Shown: positions 136-55,540 of the stretch, one piece after another
Numbering within the stretch: position 1 is the first letter of the stretch
How the letters are laid out: every line of letters starts with the position of its first letter
Virus record (IMG/VR): IMGVR_UViG_3300030332_001481
Coordinates: 67,486 to 131,485 of that record
DNA length: 64,000 nucleotides
Source: a virus
Taxonomy: Duplodnaviria; Heunggongvirae; Uroviricota; Caudoviricetes
Direction: 5' to 3' (one strand)
Position numbers and translations under genes: made by a program
Notes under the pieces: model-generated
What the model saw: only the letters and a program-made list of their open reading frames with translations
The model's database searches: none
What the model was told of the DNA's origin: nothing

Positions 136-505
136 GCGCAACCGGATTGCGTCTGTGGCGATCACCGCCACCAAGGACTGGGACAGAGACATCAAGGTGG
201 GATCTCGTGTTCTGGTCAAGGCCGACCCTTTTCCACACGTGTACGAAGTCACTAGCTGTGAGAGTCGGTTCCTAGGCGAGCATGACCTGTGGAACTACCC
301 CTCCCTCATGCAGAAGGGATTCGAGGCTGGGGATGAGATCTCGCCCCTCTTGGTGTTGGTTCGGTCTCGCCTTGCTCCCTCGTGGAACCGTGATGACGGT
401 GCCGTGTTTACTCGCAAAATGGACGCACAGTTTGTGCACCTGCTAACGCCTGCTGATGTGCAGGCAGTGATCGACAACCTCAACGAACTGATGGCAGAGC
501 TATGA
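128..505 (+). CDS. hypothetical protein (GTG start)
   Basis: 125-aa ORF; its stop overlaps the next ATG (ATGA at 502-505). Confidence 0.5.
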   Translation: MVKRNRIASVAITATKDWDRDIKVGSRVLVKADPFPHVYEVTSCESRFLGEHDLWNYPSLMQKGFEAGDEISPLLVLVRSRLAPSWNRDDGAVFTRKMDAQFVHLLTPADVQAVIDNLNELMAEL

Positions 506-1434
506 GCGGAAACTTCGACCGAGACGCGAGTACGATCCTCCTGTGTGTGAGTGGTAGCCGTAGCTATGGTACCGCTACACCTGCATCTGACTACGACTAC
601 CGAGGTGTTTGCATTCCTCCTGCTGAGTACTTTCTTGGGTACTTCGCAAAGTTCGAGCAGTTCACCGAGTCAGAGCCTGATGACAAGGTCGTCTACGACA
701 TCAGGAAGTTTTTCACGCTTGCGGAGAAGGCAAACCCTAACGTGGTCGAGTCGCTGTTTGTGCGCGACTGCGATATCGTCGAGCTGACCACCCTTGGGGA
801 AGTACTGCTCGAAAATCGTGACCTTTTCCTCTCCCAGCGGGTCTTTAGTACATTCACGGGATACGCCCACGCCCAGCTGAAGCGTCTTCAGTCGCATCGC
901 GGTTGGCTGCTCAACCCTCCAGGTGACAAGCCACGCAGGGAGGACTACGGGCTCCCTGAGATGTCGAAAGCAGACCAGCGACAGCTGCAGGGTCAGATCC
1001 AGTCAGTTGAGAGCAAGAACTACGAAATCTCCGATAACATGATGTACTACATCACACAGGAGAAGGCGTACTCCAGTGCGCTCAAGAACTGGCACAGCTA
1101 CCAGCAGTGGAAGAAGAATCGGAACCCTGATCGCGCTGCCATGGAGGCGAAGTTCGGATTTGACGGGAAGCACGCCTCGCACCTCATCCGTCTAAGCCGT
1201 AGCTGTATCGAGGTACTGCAGGGCAAGGGCCTGCGGGTGTACCGTGATGACGCCGAGGAGCTTCTAGCCATTCGTAATGGTGCCTGGAGCTACGACCGTT
1301 TGATGGAGGAATCCAGTAAACTCTACGCAGAGGCCAAGCAAGCGTTGGAGGTTAGTCCTATTCCGAAGCAGCCAGACCTTACGAAGCTGGACAACCTGTG
1401 CATGCGATTGGTTCGCAAGCACCTTAACCTGTAA
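502..1434 (+). CDS. Pol-beta superfamily nucleotidyltransferase-like protein
   Basis: GS-x(9-13)-DxD signature CVSGSRSYGTATPASDYDY near the N-terminus; 310 aa. Confidence 0.55.
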   Translation: MSGNFDRDASTILLCVSGSRSYGTATPASDYDYRGVCIPPAEYFLGYFAKFEQFTESEPDDKVVYDIRKFFTLAEKANPNVVESLFVRDCDIVELTTLGEVLLENRDLFLSQRVFSTFTGYAHAQLKRLQSHRGWLLNPPGDKPRREDYGLPEMSKADQRQLQGQIQSVESKNYEISDNMMYYITQEKAYSSALKNWHSYQQWKKNRNPDRAAMEAKFGFDGKHASHLIRLSRSCIEVLQGKGLRVYRDDAEELLAIRNGAWSYDRLMEESSKLYAEAKQALEVSPIPKQPDLTKLDNLCMRLVRKHLNL

Positions 1435-5947: not shown

Positions 5948-6769
5948 ATGAGCGACAAGCTAGTCATCTACCACGGATCGTGTACCGATGGGTTCACTGC
6001 CGCATGGGTAGCTCGTACCGCCCTCGGGCCTGACGTTGAGTACGTCGAGGGAAGATATCAGACATCGCAGGAGCTGAATGTCGAGGGCAAGGATGTCCTC
6101 GTGTTCGACTTCAGCTTCCCCCGTAAGGACACGCTACGGCTGGCAGCTGCGGCTAGGTCTTTTAAGGTCATCGACCACCACGACTCCGCAGAGAAGGACG
6201 TGGGTGACCTAAAGTTCTGTTACTTCGATCAGACGAAGTCGGGAGCCATGCTGGCCTGGGACCACTTCTACGACGAGGAGCCCCCTCTCCTGGTCAAGTA
6301 CGTCCAGGACAGGGACTTGTGGCACCACGCCCTTCCGCACACTCGTGAGATCAGCGCCCTCATCAACTCCTACGAGCGGACCTGGGAGAACTGGTCAGCA
6401 CTCAGCTCTCAGCTTGACATGAGCTTCGCCAGCAGTGTCAGGGAGGGCTCAGCCCTGCTCCGGCAGCGTCGGCGTAACATTGCGTCCCTGACGAAGCACG
6501 CTCAGCTCATGACGTTCGCGGGCTACGACGAAGTCCCGGTCGTCAACACTCCCGGTTTCTTTGTTTCCGAGCTGTGCCATGATCTCGCCGAGACTGCGAA
6601 GCACCACTTTGCTGTGGGGTGGAGTCAAGGGAGTGACGGTCGGTTCAAGTATTCTCTTCGATCGGTTGGAGACATGGATGTCTCTGCGCTTTGTTTCAAG
6701 TTTGGTGGCGGTGGGCACAAGCACTCCGCTGGTTTCGTGAGTAACTCAGCTCCCTGGGAGATTGTCTGA
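5948..6769 (+). CDS. DHH/DHHA1-family phosphoesterase (NrnA/RecJ-like)
   Basis: Motifs DGFTAA, VFDFSF, IDHHDS (DHH), GGGHKHSAGF (DHHA1 GGGH). Confidence 0.65.
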   Translation: MSDKLVIYHGSCTDGFTAAWVARTALGPDVEYVEGRYQTSQELNVEGKDVLVFDFSFPRKDTLRLAAAARSFKVIDHHDSAEKDVGDLKFCYFDQTKSGAMLAWDHFYDEEPPLLVKYVQDRDLWHHALPHTREISALINSYERTWENWSALSSQLDMSFASSVREGSALLRQRRRNIASLTKHAQLMTFAGYDEVPVVNTPGFFVSELCHDLAETAKHHFAVGWSQGSDGRFKYSLRSVGDMDVSALCFKFGGGGHKHSAGFVSNSAPWEIV

Positions 6770-13376: not shown

Positions 13377-13448
13377 TGACCCTGCGGAGACTCGAACTCC
13401 GTTCCAGAGGGTGAAAGCCTCTGATCCTAGCCTATAGACGACAGGGCC
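13377..13448 (-). tRNA. tRNA-Glu (anticodon TTC)
   Basis: Cloverleaf read by eye; anticodon loop CTTTCAC; T loop GAGTTCGAGTCTC; Glu-like D arm TCGTCTATAGGCTAGGA. Confidence 0.7.
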
Positions 13449-13450
13449 GT

Positions 13451-13523
13451 CGCTCCCACAGGGAGTTGAACCCTGGTTTCCCGGCTGAGAACCGGGTGTC
13501 CTTGGCCTCTAGACGATGGGAGC
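13451..13523 (-). tRNA. tRNA-Glu (anticodon CTC)
   Basis: Anticodon stem CCCGG/CCGGG with loop TTCTCAG; Glu-like D arm. Confidence 0.6.
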
Positions 13524-13527
13524 TTAG

Positions 13528-13610
13528 CGGAAGGAGGAGGAGTCGAACCCCTGTGTTTTACCACCTCCGGTGTTCAAAGCCGGCGGCCCACCACTGAGCC
13601 TTCACCTTCC
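13528..13610 (-). tRNA. tRNA-Ser (anticodon TGA), type II; imperfect
   Basis: Ser-like acceptor GGAAGG, long variable arm, loop TTTGAAC with a C.A mismatch at 31-39, T loop TTCGACT; U7.U66 mismatch. Confidence 0.5.
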
Positions 13611-13617
13611 TTACGAG

Positions 13618-13702
13618 CGGTAGTCGGAGGTCTCGATCCCCAGTGCCCTGCAGCACCGCTCCGATTAGCAATCGGGCTTGATCCCTGATCAATTCGACTA
13701 CC
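13618..13702 (-). tRNA. tRNA-Ser (anticodon GCT), type II
   Basis: Anticodon loop TTGCTAA, long variable arm, acceptor GGTAGTC/GACTACC. Confidence 0.6.
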
Positions 13703-13708
13703 AGAAAG

Positions 13709-13793
13709 TGGAAGGAGACGGAATCGAACCGCAACGCTGTTACACGTCCAGCCGCTTTCCAAGCGGTACCTATCCCAGATAGGATCACCTTCC
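13709..13793 (-). tRNA. tRNA-Ser (anticodon GGA), type II
   Basis: Anticodon loop TTGGAAA, long variable arm, T loop TTCGATT. Confidence 0.6.
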
Positions 13794-13973
13794 GAGCACT
13801 TGTTCTTGCTTTTGTGGTCCCGCTCAAGCTCCACTCCATCCAGAGTACCAGTCCAGACTTCGCTTCACAGCTTGACACTGCTTTGTCTTCAGGTGATCAA
13901 TCCTTCGCAACAACGCAGCGCCTCGGCTCTTTTGGTACCAGCCTCAGGCGGGTCCACAAAAGCAAGAACTAAA
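13794..13973 (-). other. 180-nt structured spacer inside the tRNA array, closed by 22-bp inverted repeats; no tRNA fold recognised
   Basis: CTTGTTCTTGCTTTTGTGGTCCCGC (13797-13821) pairs with GCGGGTCCACAAAAGCAAGAAC (13946-13967) across about 125 nt. Confidence 0.4.
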
Positions 13974-14046
13974 TCGGGGAGACCGGATTCGAACCGATGT
14001 CCCATGCTCCCAAAGCATGTGCTAAACCAGCCTCAGCTACACCCCG
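13974..14046 (-). tRNA. tRNA-Pro (anticodon TGG)
   Basis: Anticodon stem CATGC/GCATG with loop TTTGGGA; T arm ATCGG-TTCGAAT-CCGGT. Confidence 0.65.
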
Positions 14047-14078
14047 ATATTTGGCGGCCTTAGGGTGGCCGCCGACCC
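14047..14078 (-). terminator. GC hairpin just downstream of the minus-strand HNH gene (possible terminator)
   Basis: GGCGGCC-TTAGGGT-GGCCGCC hairpin followed on the minus strand by AAATAT. Confidence 0.3.
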
Positions 14079-14079
14079 T

Positions 14080-14643
14080 TTAGGAACCCTCGTCTAGAGT
14101 TCCGTGCCAGTAGCACCAGTTGGCCCACTGTTCAGGCAACGTCGATTGCGGATCGATGTGGAACCGCACCACGGGCAAGCTATTGGGCTTTACAGGCTTA
14201 CTGAGCAGCCGCATGTTTGCTTGAGCAGGGGTCTGGTTGCCCTTAGTGCTGTTGCACTTTTGGCATGCCATGACAATGTTCTCCCAGGTAGTCTTACCTC
14301 CCTGGGCCCTCGGAATTACGTGGTCGTAGGTGAGACGCTTAAGTGTGTGCTTCGTACCGCAGTACTGGCACCTGTACTTGTCTCGGGTGGCAACGTTGAT
14401 TCGAGAGAACTTGACGCTGCGGCGACGAGCCACTTTGCGCAGCAGACGAACTACTGCGGGCATTTTGATGGTAATAGAGATTGAGCGGATGTCTTCGTCG
14501 TACTCCTCCAAGATCTCTACCTTGCCTTGGAACAACATCGTCACCGCTCTCTGCCAAGAGACGACTCGATGAGGTGAGTACGACTGATCGAGCACGAGCG
14601 TCCTCATTTCAGTCTCCTGGTTAATCAAATAAGCTGTCACCAA
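14080..14643 (-). CDS. HNH endonuclease
   Basis: [44 protein letters not shown]. Confidence 0.75.
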
Positions 14644-14666
14644 CCCACCCTGTAAAGAGGTAAGCT

Positions 14667-15041
14667 ATGCGACCTATTCCGACTCTGAGTGGCACCTGCG
14701 TACAGTGCGAGCGATATACGATGGTCCACGACGACGACACGTGCGATGCGTGCGTATCCCGCATCCCGCCTCCCCCACGGAATCCAGGAAGGGTTCAAGT
14801 GATCCTGTCCTACACTTTCCTGGGGAGTCTTGGACTTGGGGTTTTAGCAGCCGTGCTGTACTGCTGCGCGGCCACCGTCCGGTGGGGCTTCGGCGAGCAG
14901 GTGAGCAGCCCAGCAGTATTTGGGCTTGTCATTTGGTTTGTGCTGTTCGTTGTATCCGTTGTATATGCAGCTGATGTAGTGTGTGCGCACCTGGGTAACT
15001 CTTCGAGAGAAGGCCGTGCCACTCGACCCAAAGAGTTCTGA
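14667..15041 (+). CDS. putative small membrane protein with an N-terminal zinc ribbon
   Basis: CVQCERY...CDAC, then two hydrophobic helices. Confidence 0.35.
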   Translation: MRPIPTLSGTCVQCERYTMVHDDDTCDACVSRIPPPPRNPGRVQVILSYTFLGSLGLGVLAAVLYCCAATVRWGFGEQVSSPAVFGLVIWFVLFVVSVVYAADVVCAHLGNSSREGRATRPKEF

Positions 15042-15042
15042 T

Positions 15043-15100
15043 GGTAGCCGCGGTCGGATTCGAACCGACACTGTTCCTGAAACTAGCGTCTGTTCTCAGA
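15043..15100 (-). other. tRNA 3'-half-like sequence (variable, T arm, acceptor 3' strand, encoded CCA) flanking the IS right end
   Basis: GTCGG-TTCGAAT-CCGAC-CGCGGCT-A-CCA; no matching 5' acceptor strand found nearby. Confidence 0.4.
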
Positions 15101-15236
15101 GTCTTACCTGACATTCTCATGCCGGTGCTCTGTTGACGCTTCACTCGGGCTGGTTTCGCCATCTGCCGTAAGGCAGTTGGCCAGAGCCTTCCCGTCCACG
15201 TCCTGCAACCGAGGAACCCCCGGCCGTAAGTTTATT
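15069..15236 (-). ncRNA. TnpB-associated omega RNA (right-end element RNA): scaffold 15090-15236 overlapping the tnpB 3' end, guide-like flank 15069-15089
   Basis: 147-nt block near-identical to a second copy at 29663-29809, with an internal GNRA-loop hairpin. Confidence 0.55.
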
Positions 15237-16321
15237 GCTGCGTTGAGGTCACGGTCACAGTTGAATCCGCAGACTTCGCAGTTGAAAGTTCGCTCACTGA
15301 GCGTTAGCGATCCATTTACGGCTCCACAAGAGGAGCACGTTTTTGACGACGGGTAAAATCGGTCATGCACGAATACTTCTGACCCGTACCACTTGGCCTT
15401 GTATTCGAGCTGCCTACGTACCTCAAAAAACGAAACGTCATGAATCGCCTTGGACAGCCGTCTGTTCTTTACCATACCACTGACATTGAGGTCTTCGATC
15501 CCAATGTGACCGTACGACTTAGACACGATAGACGTCATCTTGTGAAGTGCGTCTCTGCGCTGGCAAGAGATTCGGTAATACAGACGTGCAACCGCTGCCC
15601 TTTTTCTTTTGTACCTATTTGACCCCTTCACTGACCTGCTCAGTGACTGTTGGAGTCTTCTTAGTTTCCTTTCACTGTTTCTTAGTGCTCTAGGGTTAGA
15701 GAACACGGTTCCGTCAGACAGGGTTGCCAGTGTCTTTATTCCTAGGTCGACTCCGACCGAGTCTCCGTGGTTCTTGGGGACCTCGATGTCCTCCTCGACC
15801 TGGAATGAGACAAACCAGTGACCTGCCCTTTCAGATACCGTTGCAGATAGGATCCTGCCCTTGATTTTGGGCGTCTCTTTTAGCCTGATGCGTCCGAGTC
15901 TCGGGAGCTGAACATGCCGATCAAGTACCTTGATCACACCGTATAGCTTGAACGTGCCCAGGCCCTTCTTTTTACTCTTGAAGCGCGGAAATCTTGCCCT
16001 CTTCGAGAAGAAGTTGTCGTATGCTCGGTCCAGGTCGCGTAGTGCTTCCTGCATTGCACACTTGGACACCTCGTACATCCACGGGAACTCTGTCTTCTTG
16101 AGGGCATTGAGCTGCTTGTGCTGTGTCATCGCCTTGGATGACTTGTACTTAGGCAGTTCTTCCCCGGCGGCCTCCTTGGCCTTGTACTCAGCGTATTCGT
16201 CAATGCGGCGTCGAAGGCCCCAGTTAAAAGCGAAGCGCGCAGCACCACAATGGCGAACGAGATGTCCTCGTTGCTTGTTGTTAGGTCGCATCTCGACCTT
16301 GTAAGCGCGATTAATCCTCAT
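15104..16321 (-). CDS. tnpB: TnpB (OrfB) RNA-guided endonuclease of the IS200/IS605 family
   Basis: C-terminal RuvC-like split with zinc finger: SKTCSSCG...CEVCGFNCDRDLNAAINL; N-terminal region typical of OrfB. Confidence 0.85.
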   Translation of the reverse strand: MRINRAYKVEMRPNNKQRGHLVRHCGAARFAFNWGLRRRIDEYAEYKAKEAAGEELPKYKSSKAMTQHKQLNALKKTEFPWMYEVSKCAMQEALRDLDRAYDNFFSKRARFPRFKSKKKGLGTFKLYGVIKVLDRHVQLPRLGRIRLKETPKIKGRILSATVSERAGHWFVSFQVEEDIEVPKNHGDSVGVDLGIKTLATLSDGTVFSNPRALRNSERKLRRLQQSLSRSVKGSNRYKRKRAAVARLYYRISCQRRDALHKMTSIVSKSYGHIGIEDLNVSGMVKNRRLSKAIHDVSFFEVRRQLEYKAKWYGSEVFVHDRFYPSSKTCSSCGAVNGSLTLSERTFNCEVCGFNCDRDLNAAINLRPGVPRLQDVDGKALANCLTADGETSPSEASTEHRHENVR

Positions 16322-16350
16322 CACCTGAGGTACTCAGTTTACATGGTAAA

Positions 16351-16422
16351 CGTCCCCACGTGGATTCGAACCACGATTTTCGACTTAGGAGGTCGAAGTT
16401 CTATCCATTGAACTATAGGGAC
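16351..16422 (-). tRNA. tRNA-Arg (anticodon CCT)
   Basis: Anticodon stem TCGAC/GTCGA with loop CTCCTAA; T arm CGTGG-TTCGAAT-CCACG. Confidence 0.7.
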
Positions 16423-16428
16423 AACTAG

Positions 16429-16501
16429 CGATCGCGATAGGAATCGAACCTACAACCGCCCGGTTCGTAGCCGGGTGCTCATCCTGTTGAGCTTCGCGAT
16501 C
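16429..16501 (-). tRNA. tRNA-Arg (anticodon ACG)
   Basis: Anticodon stem CCCGG/CCGGG with loop CTACGAA; acceptor GATCGCG/CGCGATC. Confidence 0.75.
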
Positions 16502-16505
16502 CAAG

Positions 16506-16575
16506 AGGCGCAGGTGAGAATCGAACTCGACCTTCGCGGATTTGCAGTCCGCGTCCTTCCCAGAAGGACCGCGCC
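16506..16575 (-). tRNA. tRNA-Cys (anticodon GCA)
   Basis: Acceptor GGCGCGG, discriminator U, anticodon stem GCGGA/TCCGC with loop CTGCAAA; T stem imperfect. Confidence 0.55.
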
Positions 16576-16578
16576 GAA

Positions 16579-16650
16579 AGCGGGTAGTCGGAATCGAACC
16601 GACTTATCCAGGGTGGAAGCCTGGCGCATCGCCATCAATGCTTTACCCGC
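16579..16650 (-). tRNA. tRNA-Gly (anticodon TCC)
   Basis: Acceptor GCGGGTA/TACCCGC, anticodon stem CCAGG/CCTGG with loop CTTCCAC. Confidence 0.75.
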
Positions 16651-16656
16651 GAGAAG

Positions 16657-16740
16657 TGGGCCCTGATGGAATCGAACCACATAGCCAATTGGCACCTGTG
16701 TTACAGACAGGGGACCGTCCCAGCGATCTATTCAGAACCC
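16657..16740 (-). tRNA. tRNA-Tyr (anticodon GTA), type II; non-canonical 5' region
   Basis: Anticodon stem CCTGT/ACAGG with loop CTGTAAC, long variable arm; acceptor needs two G.U pairs; D region atypical. Confidence 0.45.
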
Positions 16741-16745
16741 GAAAG

Positions 16746-16818
16746 TGGAGCTGAGGGGAATCGAACCCCTGACCCCCTGTCTGCCAGACAGGTGCTCTCC
16801 CAACTGAGCTACAGCCCC
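16746..16818 (-). tRNA. tRNA-Ala (anticodon GGC)
   Basis: G3.U70 present; anticodon stem CCTGT/ACAGG with loop CTGGCAG. Confidence 0.75.
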
Positions 16819-16825
16819 AATTGTG

Positions 16826-16893
16826 TCGTTCGAGTGGGACTCGAACCCACGGCCTCTTGCATGCTAGCGCTCTCCCAGCTGAGCTACCGAACG
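16826..16893 (-). pseudogene. tRNA-like element with canonical D and T arms but a truncated anticodon/variable region; acceptor pairing extends to an 11-bp inverted repeat
   Basis: Only 17 nt (CTAGCATGCAAGAGGCC) lie between the D arm and the T arm, and no 5-bp/7-nt/5-bp arm can be drawn there. Confidence 0.35.
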
Positions 16894-16898
16894 ACACA

Positions 16899-16971
16899 TG
16901 TACCCGGACGGAATTGAACCGACATCCAGCGGACCACAACCGCGTGCTCTAGCCGTTGAGCTACAGGTACC
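16899..16971 (-). tRNA. tRNA-His (anticodon GTG) with genome-encoded G-1 and A73
   Basis: Anticodon loop TTGTGGT; an extra 5' G precedes the GTACCTG acceptor; discriminator A. Confidence 0.7.
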
Positions 16972-16975
16972 ACAA

Positions 16976-17048
16976 AGCTCCGAGCCGGACTCGAACCGGC
17001 CGTCTCCCACGTACCAAGCGGGTGAAGCGCCACCTCTTCTTTCGGAGC
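16976..17048 (-). tRNA. tRNA-Thr (anticodon GGT)
   Basis: Acceptor GCTCCGA/TCGGAGC, anticodon loop TTGGTAC. Confidence 0.7.
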
Positions 17049-17055
17049 AATACTA

Positions 17056-17127
17056 TTGGTCCACTGGGAATCGAACCCAGATTTCTCGCGTATCAGACGA
17101 GTGCCCTAACCATTAGACGATGGACCA
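17056..17127 (-). tRNA. tRNA-Ile (anticodon GAT)
   Basis: Anticodon stem CTCGT/GCGAG with loop CTGATAC; U1-A72. Confidence 0.7.
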
Positions 17128-17132
17128 GTGAG

Positions 17133-17215
17133 TGGTGGAGGAGGGACTCGAACCCACAATTCCCGAAGGAGCCGGATTTACAGTCCGGTGCCGCTACCTG
17201 TGCGACGTCTCCACC
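17133..17215 (-). tRNA. tRNA-Tyr (anticodon GTA), type II
   Basis: Anticodon stem CCGGA/TCCGG with loop CTGTAAA; long variable arm; acceptor GGTGGAG/CTCCACC. Confidence 0.7.
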
Positions 17216-17218
17216 CCA

Positions 17219-17291
17219 TGCTCGGAGTCGGAATTGAACCGACGACACCCTGATCTTCAATCAAGTGCTCTACCTGCTGAGCTATCCGAGC
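17219..17291 (-). tRNA. tRNA-Phe (anticodon GAA)
   Basis: Acceptor GCTCGGA/TCCGAGC, anticodon loop TTGAAGA; Phe-like overall. Confidence 0.75.
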
Positions 17292-17306
17292 CTGTAAAAT
17301 CAAGCC

Positions 17307-17567
17307 ATGACTGACTATTACGACTTTGAGTTTCCCGTGAAGCTCGATCGAAGCAGAACATCAATAGATGTTCTCACTCCGCTGAACGAGATGCATGGGT
17401 ACGTCCCGTCCTGGGATCCAGTAGACCAACAGTCTGACCATGTCAGAGCAGTCCGGACCGCGAAGGCCCAGCTCAACTCCAGCTACATCGGGGCCTTCCG
17501 CCTCCACAAGGACGGCACCATTACTCTACGGTCCCTACGGGAATCGAACCCGCCCACACCTGGATGA
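17307..17567 (+). CDS. possible small protein (MTDYYDF N-terminus) in the gap between tRNAs; 3' end overlaps tRNA-Asp on the opposite strand
   Basis: ATGACTGAC start typical of this genome; 230-nt tRNA-free gap. Confidence 0.3.
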   Translation: MTDYYDFEFPVKLDRSRTSIDVLTPLNEMHGYVPSWDPVDQQSDHVRAVRTAKAQLNSSYIGAFRLHKDGTITLRSLRESNPPTPG

Positions 17568-17601
17568 CAACCAGGCTGCCTTCCCAGCAGCATCAAGGAC
17601 C
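17529..17601 (-). tRNA. tRNA-Asp (anticodon GTC)
   Basis: Anticodon stem CCTGG/CCAGG with loop TTGTCAT; T arm GCGGG-TTCGATT-CCCGT; discriminator G. Confidence 0.7.
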
Positions 17602-17604
17602 TAA

Positions 17605-17676
17605 CAGGCCACCGAGGAATCGAACCCCGCAGACGGTCGGATTTGGAGTCCAACCCGGTTACCCAGACCGTGACCT
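17605..17676 (-). tRNA. tRNA-Trp (anticodon CCA); atypical D arm and 7-nt variable loop
   Basis: A1-U72, anticodon loop CTCCAAA. Confidence 0.55.
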
Positions 17677-17680
17677 ATGA

Positions 17681-17751
17681 TGGAGGCGGTAGGAATCGAA
17701 CCGTACTACCCTACTGGATACCATCCAGTGCTCGCCTTGAGCTTCACCTCC
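17681..17751 (-). tRNA. tRNA-like gene; anticodon uncertain (possibly GGT); irregular T region
   Basis: Acceptor GGAGGTG/CGCCTCC, GGTTCGATTCC T-loop signature, hairpin ACTGG-ATGGTAT-CCAGT. Confidence 0.35.
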
Positions 17752-17755
17752 ATAG

Positions 17756-17831
17756 CTGGCCCCCTGGGACTCGAACCCAGAACCCTTCCGTTAACAGCGG
17801 AATGCTCTAACCAAAATTGAGCTAGGGACCA
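17756..17831 (-). tRNA. tRNA-Asn (anticodon GTT)
   Basis: U1-A72, anticodon stem TTCCG/CGGAA with loop CTGTTAA. Confidence 0.7.
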
Positions 17832-27891: not shown

Positions 27892-28210
27892 TGAATCTAA
27901 GAAGCAGTGGATAGAGATGTGGACGCGCACTGGTCTGACAGAGGAGCATGCACTCTCCGTTCTTGACCAGTCTGAAAAGTTGGCGGCGCTTTACGCCTTT
28001 ATGCTTAGGCACAATGAGGACATCGCTCCTAACTACTTCACTGCCCGCTTCTCCTACGAGGCGGACGACTCCAATCCTGATAGCTTCGCGTATGACTTTA
28101 CCATTCAGCGAACTAGCGGACTCTCCCCTGACGAGCGTTGTAAGCAGTTCGAAGAGAAGGTCGCTTCTCTGGAGGCACAGCTGGGCCTCGATTCTGACGA
28201 GGAATTGTGA
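27854..28210 (+). CDS. hypothetical protein
   Basis: 118-aa ORF. Confidence 0.45.
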   Translation: MTRSKWSAQMLSDESKKQWIEMWTRTGLTEEHALSVLDQSEKLAALYAFMLRHNEDIAPNYFTARFSYEADDSNPDSFAYDFTIQRTSGLSPDERCKQFEEKVASLEAQLGLDSDEEL

Positions 28211-29246: not shown

Positions 29247-29319
29247 GGGACCTTAGCTCAGCGGCTAGAGCATTCGGCCTTTAACCGAGCGGTCGTGGGT
29301 TCGAATCCCACAGGTCCTA
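29247..29319 (+). tRNA. tRNA-Lys (anticodon TTT) with an unusual C33
   Basis: Anticodon stem TTCGG/CCGAG with loop CCTTTAA; T arm GTGGG-TTCGAAT-CCCAC. Confidence 0.55.
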
Positions 29320-29323
29320 ATAC

Positions 29324-29397
29324 GGGTCGCTAGCTCAACTGGTAGTAGCAGCGGATTCTTAATCCGCCGGTTCGGGGTTCAAGTCCCCGGCGACCCA
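29324..29397 (+). tRNA. tRNA-Lys (anticodon CTT)
   Basis: Acceptor GGGTCGC/GCGACCC, anticodon stem GCGGA/TCCGC with loop TTCTTAA. Confidence 0.75.
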
Positions 29398-29453
29398 TTA
29401 CTCTACCCTGTAAAGGGTAGGTACCTGAAAACTAAATCGAGAAGCAAAAATGA

Positions 29454-29526
29454 TCGGGCGTAGTTCAGTTGGTAGAACGACGGCTTCTGGCGCCGTATGT
29501 CGGGGGTTCGATTCCTCCCGCCCGTA
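29454..29526 (+). tRNA. tRNA-Gln (anticodon CTG); positions 1 and 72 are unpaired (U.U)
   Basis: Anticodon stem ACGGC/GCCGT with loop TTCTGGC; acceptor TCGGGCG/CGCCCGT. Confidence 0.6.
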
Positions 29527-29576
29527 TGACACAGGTTGCTCTACACCTACTAAAGTAGAGACGAGACAAGTAGAGA

Positions 29577-29660
29577 GGGGACGTGGCGGAATAGGCAGAC
29601 GCAGGAGACTCAAAATCTCCCGATCGAGAGGTTGTGTGGGTTCGATCCCCACCGTCCCCA
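29577..29660 (+). tRNA. tRNA-Leu (anticodon CAA), type II
   Basis: Acceptor GGGGACG/CGTCCCC, anticodon stem GGAGA/TCTCC with loop CTCAAAA, long variable arm. Confidence 0.75.
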
Positions 29661-29662
29661 CT

Positions 29663-29829
29663 AATAAACTTACGGCCGGGGGTTCCTCGGTTGCAGGACG
29701 TGGACGGGAAGGCTCTGGCCAACTGCCTTACGGCAGATGGCGAAACCAGCCCGAGTGAAGCGTCAACAGATCACCCACACGTGAGTGTGGGGTAAGGCTC
29801 TGAGAACAGTGTAACGGATGAGCTGGATG
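29663..29829 (+). ncRNA. solo omega-RNA-like right-end fragment of an IS605-family element (last ~38 tnpB codons plus scaffold), immediately upstream of tRNA-Val
   Basis: About 105 nt identical to the tnpB 3' end, then a divergent hairpin with compensatory changes (CCCACAC-GTGA-GTGTGGG here, GGCAT-GAGA-ATGTC in copy 1), then the conserved GGTAAG.CTCTGAGAACAG and a unique 20-nt flank. Confidence 0.55.
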
Positions 29830-29897
29830 GATAGCTCAGTTGGTAGAGCGCTGGTTTTACACACCAGTGGTCGTCGGTTCGATCCCGGCTCCATCCA
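29825..29897 (+). tRNA. tRNA-Val (anticodon TAC)
   Basis: Acceptor GGATGGA/TCCATCC, anticodon stem CTGGT/ACCAG with loop TTTACAC. Confidence 0.8.
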
Positions 29898-29983
29898 TAG
29901 GTAGATAGCCTGGCTATACGCAGGTCTACCCGGACAATTAGCGTATAGGTTCGGGGTGGCGCGGACACACAACTGCCACACTC

Positions 29984-30059
29984 GGGGCCTTAGCTCAGTT
30001 GGGAGAGCTCCGGCTTTGCACGCCGGGTATTTGCGAGGGTTCGATTCCCTCAGGCTCCA
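29984..30059 (+). tRNA. tRNA-Ala (anticodon TGC)
   Basis: G3.U70, anticodon stem CCGGC/GCCGG with loop TTTGCAC. Confidence 0.7.
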
Positions 30060-30068
30060 TAAAACCCT

Positions 30069-30854
30069 TTAGTATGATTTGCCTTCGGCGTATCTCTGAC
30101 GGCGGTAGTGTCTGCCTTTACCCCTGTTTTTGCCCTTGTACGTGTCTGTAAGTGCGTGGCAGTTTGAACAGATCAATCTTAGGTTCTCATCCCTATGATC
30201 ATAGGGATCCCCATTGATATGGTCAGCTTCTAGTGGAATATCCACTCCCTGCCACTTCTTTCTGCGGCAGACGTCACATCGTAACGGCCGAGTGTGTAGT
30301 AAATAGTTCCGTAAAGTGCTCGCGGACGGATTACCTTTGCGCACACTTGAAAACGTTCTGTGCAGTGCACTGCACGTACGCGAGCAGAACTTACTAACTG
30401 GAAGTGCTTCGTACGTTGTCCCGCACTGGTTGCACTCCTTGAGGATAATCTTCTTCACCCGCTTAGGGTATTTACTGTTATTGATAGTTGCTGCACAGCT
30501 TTGAGAGCAATAACGCCTGTTATTCGCAGGTAAATCCATGAACTCTGTGCCGCAGTTTCCACAATTTATTGGCGTGCTCTTGCTCCCTCTTATTCTGGAG
30601 ACCAGAATTCCATTATTCTGTGCCCAGACACGAACTGCATTCGCAGATCTTCCTAGTTCGGTGCCAACTTCTTTGTGGGTGGCACCCTTCCGCAATAGGG
30701 AGGCTGCCTTTTCCTTGTCTTCCGTTGTCCATTTTCGCATTATTACGTGCCCAAGTAAGTTAACAGGTAAACTGCGGCCTTTGTACCGCCGATAAGACAG
30801 TTCGAGTCTGTCCTTGGGCTTCAGATAACTCGATGACAGCTGTTTCGCGTCCAA
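30069..30854 (-). CDS. HNH endonuclease with an N-terminal HTH-like region
   Basis: CDVCRRK...EADHINGDPYDHRDENLRLICSNCH. Confidence 0.75.
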   Translation of the reverse strand: MDAKQLSSSYLKPKDRLELSYRRYKGRSLPVNLLGHVIMRKWTTEDKEKAASLLRKGATHKEVGTELGRSANAVRVWAQNNGILVSRIRGSKSTPINCGNCGTEFMDLPANNRRYCSQSCAATINNSKYPKRVKKIILKECNQCGTTYEALPVSKFCSRTCSALHRTFSSVRKGNPSASTLRNYLLHTRPLRCDVCRRKKWQGVDIPLEADHINGDPYDHRDENLRLICSNCHALTDTYKGKNRGKGRHYRRQRYAEGKSY

Positions 30855-30882
30855 TGCGCAGCTGGATCGATAAATGAGATGT

Positions 30883-30955
30883 TCGGGCTTAGTTCAGTTG
30901 GTAGAACGCCAGGTTTTGGTTCTGGATGTCGGGGGTTCAAATCCCTCAGCCCGTG
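30883..30955 (+). tRNA. tRNA-Gln (anticodon TTG); positions 1 and 72 are unpaired (U.U)
   Basis: Anticodon stem CCAGG/TCTGG with loop TTTTGGT; same body as the tRNA at 29454. Confidence 0.6.
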
Positions 30956-31033
30956 TGAAATAGGTCGCTCTATACCTATAAGTATAGACAAGTCCCTCCG
31001 CCCGTTTCAAAACAGGAAGGAAAGGTAGAACTC

Positions 31034-48743: not shown

Positions 48744-49133
48744 ATGACTGTCAGGAGCTTTGGTTCGCTAGACGAGATGATCGCTGCCATGGAAGAGGAT
48801 AAGCGGGCGGCAGACTCTCAGGTGCAGGAGTGGCAAAAGAAGTTGAAAGTTGGGGACTACTTTCTCCGCGTCGAGTGCGGAATCCACATCTTCTGTGAGG
48901 TTCTTGATCCCTCAGTGCCTCCCGATGGGTCGCTAGATCCGGAAGAGGTGGAAGAGATTCGAAAAGAGGCAGAGATATACAAGGAGCCTCACATGACAGG
49001 GTTTAGGTTCTGCCGCTGTTTCAGCTCTGTCTGCCCCGAAGGTGAGGTTGGGGACGTCCATATTTCCACGGCAGGGGCCAAGCTTCGCCAGGAAGAGTTT
49101 CTGACTGCTCGGCAGAACGACTGGCTACTCTAG
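48744..49133 (+). CDS. hypothetical protein (MTV N-terminus)
   Basis: ATGACTGTC start. Confidence 0.45.
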   Translation: MTVRSFGSLDEMIAAMEEDKRAADSQVQEWQKKLKVGDYFLRVECGIHIFCEVLDPSVPPDGSLDPEEVEEIRKEAEIYKEPHMTGFRFCRCFSSVCPEGEVGDVHISTAGAKLRQEEFLTARQNDWLL

Positions 49134-50362
49134 TCGCACGGGTCTCGAATGATGCTCCTCAGGTGGGTAACCATCTCTACTGCATCATTCGACAACTCGA
49201 ACACACTCATACAATCGTCAAAGCCTGACGCGTGGCGTGGGTCTACTACTGCCGCAAGGACCTCCCCTGTGCGGGCGTCACAGATGTCCCGCTCGTCAAT
49301 GGCGGGTAGACTGTAGCGCGCCCTGTGGCTCTGTCCCTCTTCGTCGGTGAAGACAATGATGATCTTGGCAGCCCCCGGGCGCCAGGTGACCCCCAGATCT
49401 CCAGACATCGCCTCCCACACCGCATCATATGTAGGCTCGTCGCCTCCAATCCCGGTGGTTGGGATTATTGCTAGCGCTGCGCCAAACTCGGTGTACCCCG
49501 TCAGGTCATGAATGAGCTGCGGTGCGTGCCTGTCGACCAGCCCCGGAGCGTAGGCCAGGGCGAAGTGCCAGTCCCCCGCCGAGAACTCCTCGGAGAAGCT
49601 ACGAGTGGCCTCTGTTACGGCTCCGATTTCGTCCGACATCGAGCCTGAGATATCGATGATGTAAAGGACATCAAAGCGGGCCGAGGTTGCTGGCTCGCAC
49701 AGTCCCTCTGCGTTCATGACCCCATCGGCGCAGCCGTCGCAGTCATTGTCGATGCCGTCACAGACTAGAGTTCCAACTTCCTCGATCGGCGGAACCTCAC
49801 CACGGCAATCACTCCAACCACCCATCTCACAGGTGGAGACCCCTCGCTCACAGGGGGCGATAACTTCCGCAGGAGAGCCCCCGCCAGAGATACACCACTG
49901 TGCTAGTGGGCCTCTTTCGTCTCCGTCAATGACCCCGTCGCAGTCATTGTCGATGCCGTCGCACTCCTCAGGGACGCAGTTCACTCGACTGCAGTGTCCC
50001 TCTATGCACGCAAAACCGGCTGCGCATTGGTCGTCGAACTCACACCTTGCACCTTCCAGGTCAACTTCGACACAGCGCCCGAACCGACAGTCTTCGCCCT
50101 CCCCGCAGGCTGGGCCATGACCGCATACGCACTCCCCTCCCTCGCAGAAGTCCGCGTTGTCAGGATCACACTGAGCGTCACATGCCCCGCAGTTGTAGAA
50201 GTCCCGGTCTGTAAAGTCAGGTTGGCAGGTGTGGTCAGGCGGCGGAGGCCTTACTGCAACCCCCGCATCGGGCTGGGTTGAGGAAGAATCTGGTAGTGGG
50301 ATTGTTTGGTGCGTACAAGCAGCCAGAAGTACCACGACCTGTGTAGCAATCACCCTTGTCAT
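49130..50362 (-). CDS. secreted protein with Cys-rich CDGIDNDCDG repeats and a C-terminal vWA domain
   Basis: Signal peptide; repeated C-x-D-G-x-D-N-D-C-D-G units; MIDAS DISGSMSDE ... IVFTDEEGQS. Confidence 0.65.
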   Translation of the reverse strand: MTRVIATQVVVLLAACTHQTIPLPDSSSTQPDAGVAVRPPPPDHTCQPDFTDRDFYNCGACDAQCDPDNADFCEGGECVCGHGPACGEGEDCRFGRCVEVDLEGARCEFDDQCAAGFACIEGHCSRVNCVPEECDGIDNDCDGVIDGDERGPLAQWCISGGGSPAEVIAPCERGVSTCEMGGWSDCRGEVPPIEEVGTLVCDGIDNDCDGCADGVMNAEGLCEPATSARFDVLYIIDISGSMSDEIGAVTEATRSFSEEFSAGDWHFALAYAPGLVDRHAPQLIHDLTGYTEFGAALAIIPTTGIGGDEPTYDAVWEAMSGDLGVTWRPGAAKIIIVFTDEEGQSHRARYSLPAIDERDICDARTGEVLAAVVDPRHASGFDDCMSVFELSNDAVEMVTHLRSIIRDPCD

Positions 50363-50450: not shown

Positions 50451-51167
50451 ATGGATCTCCCTACTCGCATGAAGCGCTACGAGAGCGCTAGTTCTACTGT
50501 GGTTACACCCCGAACCCCCGTCGTTGTACGTGTGGATGGGCGTTCCTTCTCCCGCTACACCGCACCCCTACGTAAGAGTGGGTTTGCCTCGCTTGAGTTC
50601 CGCACCGTCATGGCTGAGGTGGGGCTGGCAATGGCGAATCAGTGCTCTGATGTTGAGTGCGCCTTCATCCAGTCGGATGAGATCTCGCTCCTGTTCCATT
50701 TCTACAAGGATTTCGAGAGCCTTCCGTGGTTCGGCGGCAAGATCCAGAAGATCGCCTCGGTCACTGCGGGCATCGCTTCCAGTGAGTTCACTGCCCGAAG
50801 CCCCCAGATGTTTTCTGGGGAGATGAGGCCCGCTCACTTCGACTCACGGGTCTTTGTCCTTCCCGAGGCAGAGGTGGAGAACTACTTCATCTCTCGGTTC
50901 CGGGACTGTACTCGGAACTCCGTGCAGATGATGGCCCAGTTCAACTTCTCCCACAAGGAGCTGCAGGGCAAGTCCATCACCGAGCAGCAGGAGATGCTCC
51001 GCAACGCTGGCCGTCCCTGGGAAGCGCTAGACGCGTACCAGAAGTACGGGACTATGATCGTCAAGGACGCGGACACTCGTGAGTGGGTGTCTCACGCAGC
51101 AGGGCCCATCATGAATGACCCGCCCACGCGCAACGCCCTGTTCCAGCGGCTGCTAGCCACTACCTGA
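50451..51167 (+). CDS. Thg1-like protein (tRNA-His guanylyltransferase family, 3'-5' nucleotidyltransferase)
   Basis: VVVRVDGRSFSRYT near the N-terminus, SDEISLLF, then DSRVFVLP...ENYFISRFRDCTRNS; about 238 aa, Thg1-like size and motif order. Confidence 0.6.
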   Translation: MDLPTRMKRYESASSTVVTPRTPVVVRVDGRSFSRYTAPLRKSGFASLEFRTVMAEVGLAMANQCSDVECAFIQSDEISLLFHFYKDFESLPWFGGKIQKIASVTAGIASSEFTARSPQMFSGEMRPAHFDSRVFVLPEAEVENYFISRFRDCTRNSVQMMAQFNFSHKELQGKSITEQQEMLRNAGRPWEALDAYQKYGTMIVKDADTREWVSHAAGPIMNDPPTRNALFQRLLATT

Positions 51168-51174
51168 CAAAGAG

Positions 51175-51206
51175 AAAGGGGTCCTGGTTTCGTCAGGACC
51201 CCTTTC
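51175..51206 (+). terminator. terminator-like hairpin downstream of the Thg1-like gene
   Basis: 12-bp stem AAAGGGGTCCTG/CAGGACCCCTTT. Confidence 0.4.
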
Positions 51207-51290: not shown

Positions 51291-51749
51291 ATGGCTGCAC
51301 GTAGAAGCGGAAAGACACCGGCCTCCCAAGGTGGTGGTTGGATACATTCACCCACAAGGTGGGCGATCTACCACCGAGATGACTTCCGCTGCGTCTACTG
51401 CGGGAAATGCGACTCCCTCACCCTGGACCACATCCATCCAGTGGAGGAGGGAGGGGACGACCACCCCTCAAACTTGGTGACTGCGTGCGGTCGCTGCAAT
51501 ACCAAGAAGGGTGCGAAATCCAAGGTGGAGTGGTACCGTGAGCTGCGAAGCCACGGCATTTGCACCGAGAAGGTTCGGCGCCGTATCAAGAGCCAGACGA
51601 AGAAGGCTCTCGACAGAGCCGTAGGACGACTACTCAGCACTCGGGGCGGGTCCCAGCCCAACCCTGGCCATACTAGAGGGCTCATCCCCGCCAAGACCGT
51701 CATCACTGTAACTACCAACCGTGAGCATACTAATGAACTCCAAGCCTGA
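51291..51749 (+). CDS. HNH endonuclease
   Basis: CVYCGKCDSLTLDHIHPVEEGGDDHPSNLVTACGRCNTKKG. Confidence 0.75.
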   Translation: MAARRSGKTPASQGGGWIHSPTRWAIYHRDDFRCVYCGKCDSLTLDHIHPVEEGGDDHPSNLVTACGRCNTKKGAKSKVEWYRELRSHGICTEKVRRRIKSQTKKALDRAVGRLLSTRGGSQPNPGHTRGLIPAKTVITVTTNREHTNELQA

Positions 51750-52698: not shown

Positions 52699-54114
52699 AT
52701 GCGTAACATGAAGAATACGTTCCACGGAGTCGACTTCTACTCCTCCACGTTCGATCCCAAGACCGGTGTCATCGTCCGGGATATCGAGGTCACGGAGGGC
52801 ACGGACAGCTTCGACCAATTCGACGTGATGCATGCCACCATCGCTCGTGTGCTTGGTGTGTACGAGAAGGCAATCAATCCGCCGGAAGTACCTGCGTACT
52901 CCAACAAGTACCAGGAGGCGAAGTACATTGTCGAAAAAGACTTCGAGGCGTTTCTCAAGCTGAGAGATGACTGGGAAGAGAGGTACGGAATCAAGCGCGG
53001 CAACGACTGGATTCACCTCCAGGAGGCACGCCAGTCCTACGCATGGTCCCCCGTCCCGGAGACCATCGACGTCAAGATCACCGACTGGTGCAACTTCGGG
53101 TGCGATTTCTGTTACATGTCTTCCACCAAGAAGGGGAAGCATGCACCGCCCGAACTGATCGAGAACATTATCACGGGGTTCGACCAGTCGCCCTACCAGA
53201 TCGCCTTCGGGGGAGGCGAGCCCTGTGCACACCCCGAGTTTCCCCACATTCTGAAGACCACGGCAAAGTTGGGTTCCGTTCCCAACTACACCACCGCAGG
53301 TCACATCTTCCGTGAGGACGTGATCAAGGCGACCAACGAGGACTGCGGCGGTGTGGCCATCACGTACCATGCTTGGGCGGGCCTCAAGAAGTTCGTGGAG
53401 ACGTACACAAAGTGGGACAAGGCACTTCGCCCCGGTCTTCAGCGGAACGTCCACGTCATCGCTGACAACAACGTGGCGGCAAACCTGCTCGATCTCATGA
53501 ACTCGGGTCTGCGTAACCTGAACATCGTTCTCCTGGCCTACTACTCTGACGTGGGCTTCGCGCAGTCTTCGGGACATCCCTCGAAGTACGTGTACAACGA
53601 GATGCTCCCGCGAGTCATCGCCGAGGTGCAGGAGAAGGCCAACTTCCGTATCGCCTTCTCTGAGGGCCTTGTCCCCTACTTCATGTCCCGTGACATCGAG
53701 GGTGTGGGCAAGAAGTACATGACGCGGCAGGAAGGCCTGTTCTCCCTCTACGTGGACGACCAGGGCTTCTGCTCTCACTCTTCGTTCGCTCCGGTCGACA
53801 CTGACCTGTCGAAGGAGAATGAGCAGTCCCTGCCGTACAGGGAGAAGCACCTGCGGAGTGTCAACCTCTACAGCACCTCCATCCAGGAGATCTGGGACCG
53901 CGCCACCTTCGCCCCGTCTTATTCGTTCATGAACGGGTACTCGCTGTGCGACCAGTGCGAGCACCAGTTCGACTGCCACGCTCCTGCCTTCGACCACTTC
54001 ATGATGTGCGGGTTCAACGACCACAACAAGATCCCGTCGAAGAGGCCCGTGGAGTACACGCCTCACCCTGACCTTGAGGGCGGGCTGGTTCAGCTACGAA
54101 AGAAGGGTTCCTGA
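52699..54114 (+). CDS. radical SAM enzyme (471 aa) with an extra C-terminal Cys cluster (possible SPASM/twitch-like)
   Basis: CNFGCDFC (CxxxCxxC) near residue 133; G-rich SAM-binding stretch FGGGEP; C-terminal CDQCEHQFDCH...MMCG. Confidence 0.8.
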   Translation: MRNMKNTFHGVDFYSSTFDPKTGVIVRDIEVTEGTDSFDQFDVMHATIARVLGVYEKAINPPEVPAYSNKYQEAKYIVEKDFEAFLKLRDDWEERYGIKRGNDWIHLQEARQSYAWSPVPETIDVKITDWCNFGCDFCYMSSTKKGKHAPPELIENIITGFDQSPYQIAFGGGEPCAHPEFPHILKTTAKLGSVPNYTTAGHIFREDVIKATNEDCGGVAITYHAWAGLKKFVETYTKWDKALRPGLQRNVHVIADNNVAANLLDLMNSGLRNLNIVLLAYYSDVGFAQSSGHPSKYVYNEMLPRVIAEVQEKANFRIAFSEGLVPYFMSRDIEGVGKKYMTRQEGLFSLYVDDQGFCSHSSFAPVDTDLSKENEQSLPYREKHLRSVNLYSTSIQEIWDRATFAPSYSFMNGYSLCDQCEHQFDCHAPAFDHFMMCGFNDHNKIPSKRPVEYTPHPDLEGGLVQLRKKGS

Positions 54115-54685: not shown

Positions 54686-54703
54686 GCTTAGAAAGAAGTG
54701 ACG

Positions 54704-55540
54704 ATGAGAGACTTGACCCCCATCACCGTAGAGACCCCCAGGTTCAAGATCGAGGGGATCTCTGTCGGAGGGATGTGTACTTCCATCTCCGTGCCTGCCC
54801 TGAACGTTGTTCTCGACGCCGGGATCTCAGCCCCCAGCATGGCCAAGGGGAACAGCCTATTCTTCAGTCACTTCCACCTGGACCATGTAGGTGGCCTGGG
54901 TACCTATCTGGGGATCCGAGACCTTCGCCGGAACTCCAGCAACCTGTACTGCCTGGAGGGGCAGAGCCGGGCGTGTGCGGACCTGGTCAGCTCCTTCAGG
55001 TCTCTGTCCGAGACGGATCTCAAGGTCGCTGTACACGGCGTGGGGTTTGGTGAATCTGTCAAGTATGACACGGGGCTGTACGCCAAGCCGTTCCGCACGC
55101 TGCATCGGGTCCCTTCCGCGGGGTGGCTCTTCAGCCGCAAGAAGAACAAGCTCAAGCCAGAGTTCATGGGCATGAATCACAAGGACATCGCGAACCTGCG
55201 GAAGTCCGGGACTGCGATCACAGAGACGGTGATCTCCAACGAGCTTGCCTACGCCACGGACACCAAGCTGGAGGCTGTACTAGCGTGCGAGGAGGCCCTC
55301 ACCGCGGATACTCTGATCCTGGAGTGTACCTACGTGTGCAAAGACTTCACTGTGGCTGAGGCGCGAAACAGGTGTCACGTGCACCTCGACGAGATCATCA
55401 TGAACGCGGAGAAGTTCCAGAACCAGAACATCGTGCTCATGCACTTCTCCAACCGCTACGACCGAGACACGATCATCAAGACAGTATCTAAGCGTGTCCC
55501 TGCAGAGTGGCTGCATGGCAAACTACAGTGGCTCGTATAG
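54704..55540 (+). CDS. metallo-beta-lactamase-fold hydrolase, possibly RNase Z/ElaC-like
   Basis: FFSHFHLDHVGGL (HxHxDH) near the N-terminus; later His/Asp residues; about 280 aa, like short-form tRNase Z. Confidence 0.55.
   Translation: MRDLTPITVETPRFKIEGISVGGMCTSISVPALNVVLDAGISAPSMAKGNSLFFSHFHLDHVGGLGTYLGIRDLRRNSSNLYCLEGQSRACADLVSSFRSLSETDLKVAVHGVGFGESVKYDTGLYAKPFRTLHRVPSAGWLFSRKKNKLKPEFMGMNHKDIANLRKSGTAITETVISNELAYATDTKLEAVLACEEALTADTLILECTYVCKDFTVAEARNRCHVHLDEIIMNAEKFQNQNIVLMHFSNRYDRDTIIKTVSKRVPAEWLHGKLQWLV

Follow-up and report, generated by a model that had tools for sequence, protein, structure and literature searches.

A Thg1-like protein of a large marine phage is probably a tRNA 5'-end repair enzyme, with no supported link to the phage tRNA-His

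The 64,000-nucleotide stretch of DNA analysed here (the window; positions 67,486 to 131,485 of IMG/VR record IMGVR_UViG_3300030332_001481) is part of a large phage, and encodes a Thg1-like protein (TLP) at 50451-51167, a tRNA-His and many other tRNAs. We suggest that the TLP probably carries out template-dependent repair of tRNA 5' ends, as one component of a phage toolkit for maintaining tRNA ends; a specific link between the enzyme and tRNA-His is not supported. The TLP, as a 3'-5' RNA polymerase, would activate a 5'-monophosphate end using ATP or GTP, and would then add nucleotides by Watson-Crick pairing, with the 3' strand of the acceptor stem as template. Its substrates and biological role are those that we infer for a general repair and quality-control enzyme: the targets would be phage or host tRNAs with missing 5' nucleotides, damaged for example by host tRNA-cleaving defences or by imprecise processing of tightly packed, CCA-less tRNA arrays. 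Working alongside a phage tRNase Z, an RlaP nucleotidyltransferase and an RNA-ligase-like protein, it would maintain a usable tRNA pool in the infected cell. The original prediction had proposed either maintenance of the 5' G (G-1) of tRNA-His or 5'-end repair of cleaved tRNAs. The second proposal is the best supported, whereas the first finds no support in the distance between the genes, the clade of the enzyme or the distributions of the two genes.

The open reading frame (ORF) was predicted to be Thg1-like, and this is borne out by profile and structure searches. It matches the Pfam Thg1 model PF04446 over profile positions 3-130 of 130 (2.2e-24, 86.3 bits against a cutoff of 29.2) and PHROG 4717, 'tRNA-His guanylyltransferase' (1.1e-61); a search of NCBIfam with the protein matched no model. 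In an alignment of 22 sequences, made up of the window protein and 21 metagenomic relatives, residues E11, R27, D29, S75, D76, E77, R133 and N156 are invariant; their roles in metal coordination and NTP binding are taken from published work (PMC3701042). The three active-site carboxylates D29, D76 and E77, whose conservation the original prediction had proposed as a check, are also present when the window TLP is aligned to the TLP of Bacillus thuringiensis (BtTLP), in which the corresponding residues are D30, D75 and E76; in human THG1 they are D29, D76 and E77 (PMC3701042). Residues E12, R28 and R131 of BtTLP likewise have equivalents in the window TLP. An AlphaFold2 model of the protein (predicted local distance difference test score, pLDDT, 93.2; predicted template-modelling score, pTM, 0.88) was compared with solved structures using Foldseek, giving template-modelling (TM) scores of 0.88-0.92 to BtTLP (4KGM) and about 0.8 to fungal and human Thg1, and the 32 best PDB structural matches were Thg1/TLP chains without exception. 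The window TLP is an intact Thg1-family protein with the polymerase-palm-like Thg1 fold; it is also predicted to be catalytically intact and to have 3'-5' nucleotide addition activity.

Within the family, the window TLP belongs to the bacterial-type, template-dependent branch rather than to eukaryotic Thg1, because BtTLP is closer to it in both sequence and structure than eukaryotic Thg1 is. The best PDB sequence match is BtTLP (4KGK, 3.6e-34), with much weaker scores for the Methanosarcina TLP (6e-9) and for human Thg1 (7e-6, about 20% identity), and the protein falls outside the eukaryotic Thg1 clade. BtTLP, the closest characterised relative, is of similar length (245 aa), but its identity to the window TLP is only about 35-40% (31-34% in the structural comparison), and the window protein is encoded by a phage and its activity is a predicted one. 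The archaeal TLP of Methanosarcina acetivorans (5AXK-5AXN, solved with tRNA-Phe) is also template-dependent and related (TM about 0.8), but is more distant from the window TLP than BtTLP is. Eukaryotic Thg1 (yeast and human; PDB 3OTB and 3WBZ) has the fold and the two-metal active site in common with the window TLP, but it adds a non-templated G opposite A73 to a tRNA-His without an encoded G-1, whereas the tRNA-His gene of the window encodes G-1. BtTLP and other bacterial and archaeal TLPs repair 5'-truncated tRNAs with a kinetic preference over N-1 addition (PMC3061083). By homology to BtTLP, the window TLP may similarly prefer Watson-Crick templated addition and 5'-truncated tRNAs.

The tRNA-His of the window lies on the minus strand, its body running from 16970 to 16899 with the anticodon GTG. 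The acceptor stem is GUACCUG/CGGGUAC, with a G1:C72 pair, and the leader reads UUGUG, so that both U-2 and G-1 are encoded, G-1 at 16971. The predicted combination of an encoded 5' G with an A73 discriminator held on re-reading, the base at 16899 being A and not C. No CCA is encoded, the bases after A73 being UGU. Since a G at -1 is found in 4 of the 26 tRNAs of the window, the G-1 of this one gene is not significant by itself. The gene resembles canonical bacterial tRNA-His in having G-1 after U-2, but not in the pairing of G-1 with C73. Its encoded G-1 also sets it apart from the alpha-proteobacterial type of tRNA-His, which has no G-1, and from eukaryotic tRNA-His genes, which do not encode it (PMC3245924). 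The nearest cellular match to this tRNA-His lay in a Streptomyces contig, and was uninformative for host identity; a blastn search of GenBank phages with the same query gave three matches only.

The TLP gene and the tRNA-His gene were described in the original prediction as adjacent. In fact 33.5 kb and dozens of genes separate them, and they are on opposite strands. This distance and the grouping of the enzyme with template-dependent TLPs are two of the reasons that a specific link is not supported. Another is the distribution of the two genes among phages. We compared two sets of IMG/VR loci anchored on a TLP (80 and 79, 159 in all, each extending 10 kb to either side) with a random sample of phage tRNA-His genes, a comparison that measures proximity only and not whole-genome co-occurrence. 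There were tRNAs in 16/80 and 25/79 of the TLP-anchored loci, among them nine distinct tRNA-His genes. Eight of these nine are canonical, with G-1:C73, and one, on contig L050, has G-1 with A73. Canonical tRNA-His is therefore over-represented near TLPs (8/9 versus 52/101 in the random sample, p = 0.04), while A73 is not enriched (1/9 versus 15/101, p = 1). We had considered an association of the TLP with A73-type or G-1-less tRNA-His, and rejected it for want of enrichment within 10 kb. In the reverse direction, tblastn found a TLP in none of 120 random phage tRNA-His loci, and in one of the 120 loci listed for the A73 class (stretches of 1-15 kb), leaving 119 without one; the exception was again the L050 contig. 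Finally, there is a TLP phage that has no tRNA-His: the complete genome of Shewanella phage 1/4 encodes a TLP, a CCA-adding enzyme and a peptidyl-tRNA hydrolase, and its only tRNAs are tRNA-Gly and tRNA-Arg. TLPs are also found in phages of Caulobacter, and in phages of Brevundimonas, Agrobacterium and Sinorhizobium, which we take to belong to the same alpha-proteobacterial clade as Caulobacter. The tRNA-His of Caulobacter crescentus is without G-1 (PMC3245924).

These distributions bear directly on the proposal that the TLP maintains G-1. According to this proposal, the unpaired G-1/A73 end would let host RNase P cut partly at +1, and the TLP would then restore G-1 to the miscleaved phage tRNA-His, and perhaps to host tRNA-His too. 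It is true that the window tRNA-His has no G-1:C73 pair, the feature by which RNase P is directed to the -1 site (PMC3245924), that Thg1 has been proposed as a backup after RNase P miscleavage in plant mitochondria, and that BtTLP rescues a yeast thg1 deletion in vivo, where tRNA-His has A73 (PMC3061083; PMC3245924). The L050 contig also has its G-1/A73 tRNA-His 9 kb from a TLP, and there is one counter-example to the general pattern, the TLP-carrying Bacillus phage QCM8, whose tRNA-His has C1:G72 and A73 and no G-1. In vitro, however, BtTLP adds G-1 about 50-fold more efficiently opposite C73 than opposite A73, and opposite A73 it prefers U over G by about 40:1 (PMC3061083). Taken with the canonical character of most TLP-proximal tRNA-His genes, the many A73-class loci without a TLP nearby, the presence of TLPs in Caulobacter phages and in a phage that has no tRNA-His, the clade of the enzyme and the distance between the two genes, this preference leads us to consider G-1 maintenance unlikely. 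We regard it as quite unlikely that the TLPs of the window, of L050 and of QCM8 have evolved a eukaryote-like placement of G-1 opposite A73, which would make them a viral counterpart of Thg1 in securing histidine identity. If that were true, the U-2/G-1/A73 class of tRNA-His would reflect undescribed rules of RNase P and HisRS in phages and in Patescibacteria, Planctomycetota and Bacteroidales.

The tRNA-His of QCM8, a Tsarbombavirus, lies at 28051-28126 of KX961630.1 (L447), with C at -1 and no encoded CCA, and is the closest case that we saw to a G-1-less A73 tRNA-His paired with a TLP. A blastn search of GenBank phages with a Bacillus-type tRNA-His query found QCM8 and BC-T25, and a concatenated query of the A73 class found Acinetobacter phages only.

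The original prediction also regarded G-1 with A73 as a eukaryotic or archaeal arrangement rather than a bacterial one. This view did not survive our surveys, in which the encoded form proved to be frequent among phages and to occur natively in several bacterial phyla. IMG/VR was scanned for tRNA-His-like anticodon and T arms and the matches were parsed, giving the random sample of 101 genes: 52 have G-1:C73 (46 of them with U-2), 25 have U-1 with C73, and 15 have A73, only three of these with G-1. A second pattern, with an acceptor end of the form ...CAC-A73, gave at least 120 IMG/VR loci and at least 120 loci in bacterial and archaeal genomes (one genome per species). Among the phage matches listed, G-1 is present in 97 of 112 (81 UG, 15 CG and 1 AG at -2/-1), where 25% would be expected (p ~1e-42), and the 112 genes span 52 distinct acceptor stems. 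Because of this excess, G-1 is a selected feature of the ...CAC-A73 class. Among the matches listed from bacterial and archaeal genomes, G-1 is present in 80 of 105; the bacterial G-1/A73 genes include many single chromosomal tRNA genes of Patescibacteria, Planctomycetota and Prevotellaceae/Bacteroidales, with UG at -2/-1. An encoded U-2/G-1 facing A73 is thus a conserved and widespread class of tRNA-His and not a eukaryote-like oddity. The window tRNA-His fits this class by its U-2, G-1, G1:C72 and A73, although the survey pattern imposed a GUG...CAC acceptor top that the window gene, with GUA...UAC, would not itself match.

Genes for tRNA-His do not encode G-1 in cases where Thg1 adds it post-transcriptionally (PMC3245924). 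The conservation of G-1 in the DNA therefore argues that it is used from the transcript and not added later, which counts against a specific role for the TLP at this position. We think that the window tRNA-His probably mirrors the identity rules of its host and keeps G-1 from the primary transcript. More generally, phage tRNA-His genes split into four classes, namely G-1:C73, U-1:C73, G-1/A73 and A73 without G-1. It is the C73/U-1 class that would most need G-1 addition. Genes of this class, often with an encoded CCA, were seen at L088, L125 and L160, at 68409-68484 of AP011113.1 (L442), in OP586623.1 (L443) and in S-PM2, and their carriers include T4-like coliphages and S-PM2-like cyanophages; neither Escherichia nor Synechococcus appears in the list of ten genera for the TLP search. 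In Lachnospiraceae genomes (among loci L332-L345 and L369-L401, of Lachnospiraceae and relatives), the tRNA-His has A73, CU at -2/-1 and no G-1, and is typically found within tRNA arrays.

The window TLP is a divergent member of a phage family that is already known and annotated. By tblastn, the family is present in 151 GenBank phage records, nearly all of them large or jumbo phages, with hosts in Bacillus, Mycobacterium, Caulobacter, Brevundimonas, Agrobacterium, Sinorhizobium, Erwinia, Yersinia, Serratia, Cronobacter, Vibrio, Aeromonas, Xanthomonas and Pseudomonas, and also including Lak phages; in IMG/VR it is present in at least 567-581 loci. Most of the GenBank copies are already annotated as tRNA-His guanylyltransferase, an annotation that our survey argues against reading literally. 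The window protein is at most 40% identical to any GenBank phage copy and at most 50% identical to its nearest metagenomic relatives. Members of PHROG 4717 include Bacillus phage Bc431v3 gp143, Shewanella phage 1/4 S14_69 and a protein of Caulobacter phage CcrColossus, all from phages that, like this one, have large genomes with tRNA and nucleotide-metabolism genes. The gene was noted in Bc431v3 in 2013 (PMC3601020), and viral sequences were included in a Thg1 phylogeny of 2011. In a comparison of jumbo phages, Iyer et al. (2021) placed Thg1 among RNA-repair enzymes that restore 5' nucleotides, together with RlaP, RNA ligases, the CCA-adding enzyme and PTH2 (PMC7824862).

It is this combination of enzyme families within one phage genome that the window recalls, and it is here that general tRNA 5'-end repair finds its genomic context (Table 1). 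The RlaP-family protein, the ligase-like protein, the DHH phosphoesterase and the TLP look like an RNA-repair set. Unlike the published jumbo-phage sets, the window also encodes a tRNase Z homologue, with matches to rice RNase ZS1 (PDB 7XGT, 1.8e-41), Thermotoga maritima tRNase Z (1WW1, 4.8e-14) and Lactamase_B_2 (5.9e-10), while no CCA-adding enzyme, polynucleotide kinase or PTH2 was seen in these 64 kb. ARAGORN finds 26 tRNAs in the window and Rfam alone finds two more tRNA-like genes; none of the tRNA genes encodes CCA, and many of the spacers are just 2-5 nt. A phage tRNase Z fits such closely spaced genes without CCA, and the tRNAs of the minus-strand arrays are probable substrates of the end-processing enzymes. 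In other phages, too, RNA-related genes occur near the TLP: its immediate neighbours at 67 other phage loci include PheRS (6), RlaP (2), PTH2 (2), RNA ligases (2), RtcB (1) and YqeY (1), and an RlaP homologue lies within 10 kb in 8/80 IMG/VR loci. The PheRS-like neighbour consists of a tRNA-synt_2d and an FDX-ACB domain. A phage TLP, tRNase Z, RlaP and ligase-like protein, together with 26-28 CCA-less tRNAs, would make a reasonable model for an end-maintenance kit.

Several points weigh against general 5'-end repair. The TLP gene is an isolated cassette, with a divergent gene upstream and a hairpin downstream, and is in no obvious operon with the other RNA enzymes of the window. The RNA-ligase call is borderline, its match to Pfam RNA_ligase (8.6e-6, 26.4 bits) falling just under the cutoff of 27, and a PDB sequence search with the protein matched no entry. 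Neither a polynucleotide kinase/phosphatase nor a CCA-adding enzyme turned up in the 64-kb window, which therefore does not demonstrate a complete repair pathway. We found no experimental study of any phage TLP in the searchable literature, and we know of no defence system that specifically trims tRNA 5' ends.

The isolation of the gene, and the heterogeneity of TLP neighbours across phages, could also be taken to mean that the TLP acts on 5' ends other than those of tRNAs, in phage or host RNAs, or that it is an accessory gene that is drifting and has little effect. A function beyond tRNA-His maturation and mitochondrial editing has been assigned to at least one eukaryotic TLP (PMC5041481). 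Against this, the catalytic and NTP-binding residues are all conserved, the family has been retained in hundreds of large phages, and several of its neighbours are tRNA-related, so that we find such a role distinctly improbable. A further conceivable function is 5' editing of the mitochondrial kind, in which the TLP would replace mismatched 5' nucleotides, for example U1 of the two tRNA-Gln genes (CUG and UUG, at 29454-29526 and 30883-30955 on the plus strand), both of which have a U1.U72 mismatch. The other 24 ARAGORN-called tRNAs of the window are paired at positions 1-3, a weak or open 1:72 pair is normal in bacterial tRNA-Gln, and no candidate nuclease for removal of 5' nucleotides was identified. 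Although eukaryotic TLPs do edit in this way in protist mitochondria (PMC5041481), editing by the window TLP seems very improbable indeed.

Table 1. Features of the window discussed in the text
Feature	Position	Strand	Basis or remarks
RlaP-family RNA-repair nucleotidyltransferase	502..1434	+	PF10127 4e-24; PHROG 388 2.7e-60
DHH phosphoesterase	5948..6769	+	
tRNA arrays, 17 ARAGORN and 2 Rfam-only	13377..17831	-	spacers 2-5 nt, no CCA
tRNA-His(GUG), including encoded G-1	16899..16971	-	ARAGORN; Rfam RF00005, 55.7 bits; sequence
tRNA array, 8 tRNAs	29247..30956	+	no CCA
Cys-rich protein, 410 aa, divergent from TLP gene	49130..50362	-	read by eye
TLP gene, 238 aa	50451..51167	+	PF04446, PHROG 4717, PDB 4KGK, invariant residues, AlphaFold2/Foldseek
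GC-rich palindromic hairpin, 13 bp	51174..51206	.	7 nt past TLP stop codon; terminator-like scan, sequence read
tRNase Z homologue	54698..55540	+	3.5 kb downstream of TLP, same strand; PDB, Pfam
RNA-ligase-like protein (weaker assignment)	58423..59028	+	KLDG (KxDG) motif; PHROG 548 'RNA ligase' 1.5e-11

The TLP ORF is taken to begin with the ATG at 50451. In its longest form the frame would begin with a GTG at 50229 and overlap the divergent gene upstream, and the 232-aa public gene call P0001 begins instead at M7, at 50469. The start at 50451 is favoured because the N-terminus that it gives, MDLPTRMKRYE, fits the family consensus, in which L3 and R6 are conserved. Three contigs of marine metagenomes carry an identical copy of the 232-aa call; Tara Oceans is the origin of one, and this is the basis for calling the large phage marine. 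The hairpin downstream is likely a transcription stop that bounds the TLP gene. The divergent Cys-rich protein, which has no Pfam match, contains CDGIDNDCDG repeats and a VWA-like DISGSMS motif, both read by eye, and in L004 and L009, too, the TLP is flanked by a homologue of this protein (45-46% identity). Between the TLP and tRNase Z genes, on the plus strand, lie an HNH endonuclease (51291-51749) and a 471-aa radical-SAM protein (52699-54114).

The window has a G+C content of about 56%, and a megablast search of GenBank phages with the 20 kb around the TLP gene gave no match. Other genes of the window encode tail-fibre proteins, thymidylate synthase, DHFR, a MazG-like protein, peptide deformylase, DnaJ and HNH endonucleases. 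An IS605-family TnpB/OrfB transposase (15104-16324, minus strand; PHROG 506, 1e-121) lies between two minus-strand tRNA clusters. Of the two Rfam-only tRNA-like genes, both on the minus strand, the one at 16826-16893 (47.6 bits) was missed by ARAGORN and lies 5 nt downstream of the tRNA-His; it has intact acceptor, D and T arms, but 2 nt take the place of the 7-nt anticodon loop, so that there is no anticodon. The other, at 17681-17751 (36 bits), resembles tRNA-Thr GGU and has an anticodon stem of 4 bp. The 'tRNA-Trp' called by ARAGORN on the minus strand is misregistered, and is better placed at 17677 to 17605, or, by the register of the acceptor stem, at 17676 to 17605. Lastly, an amber-suppressor-type tRNA with the anticodon CUA lies at 63394-63469 on the plus strand (labelled 'Pyl' by ARAGORN; Rfam, 56.8 bits), and could point to readthrough or recoding of TAG at some site in the phage.

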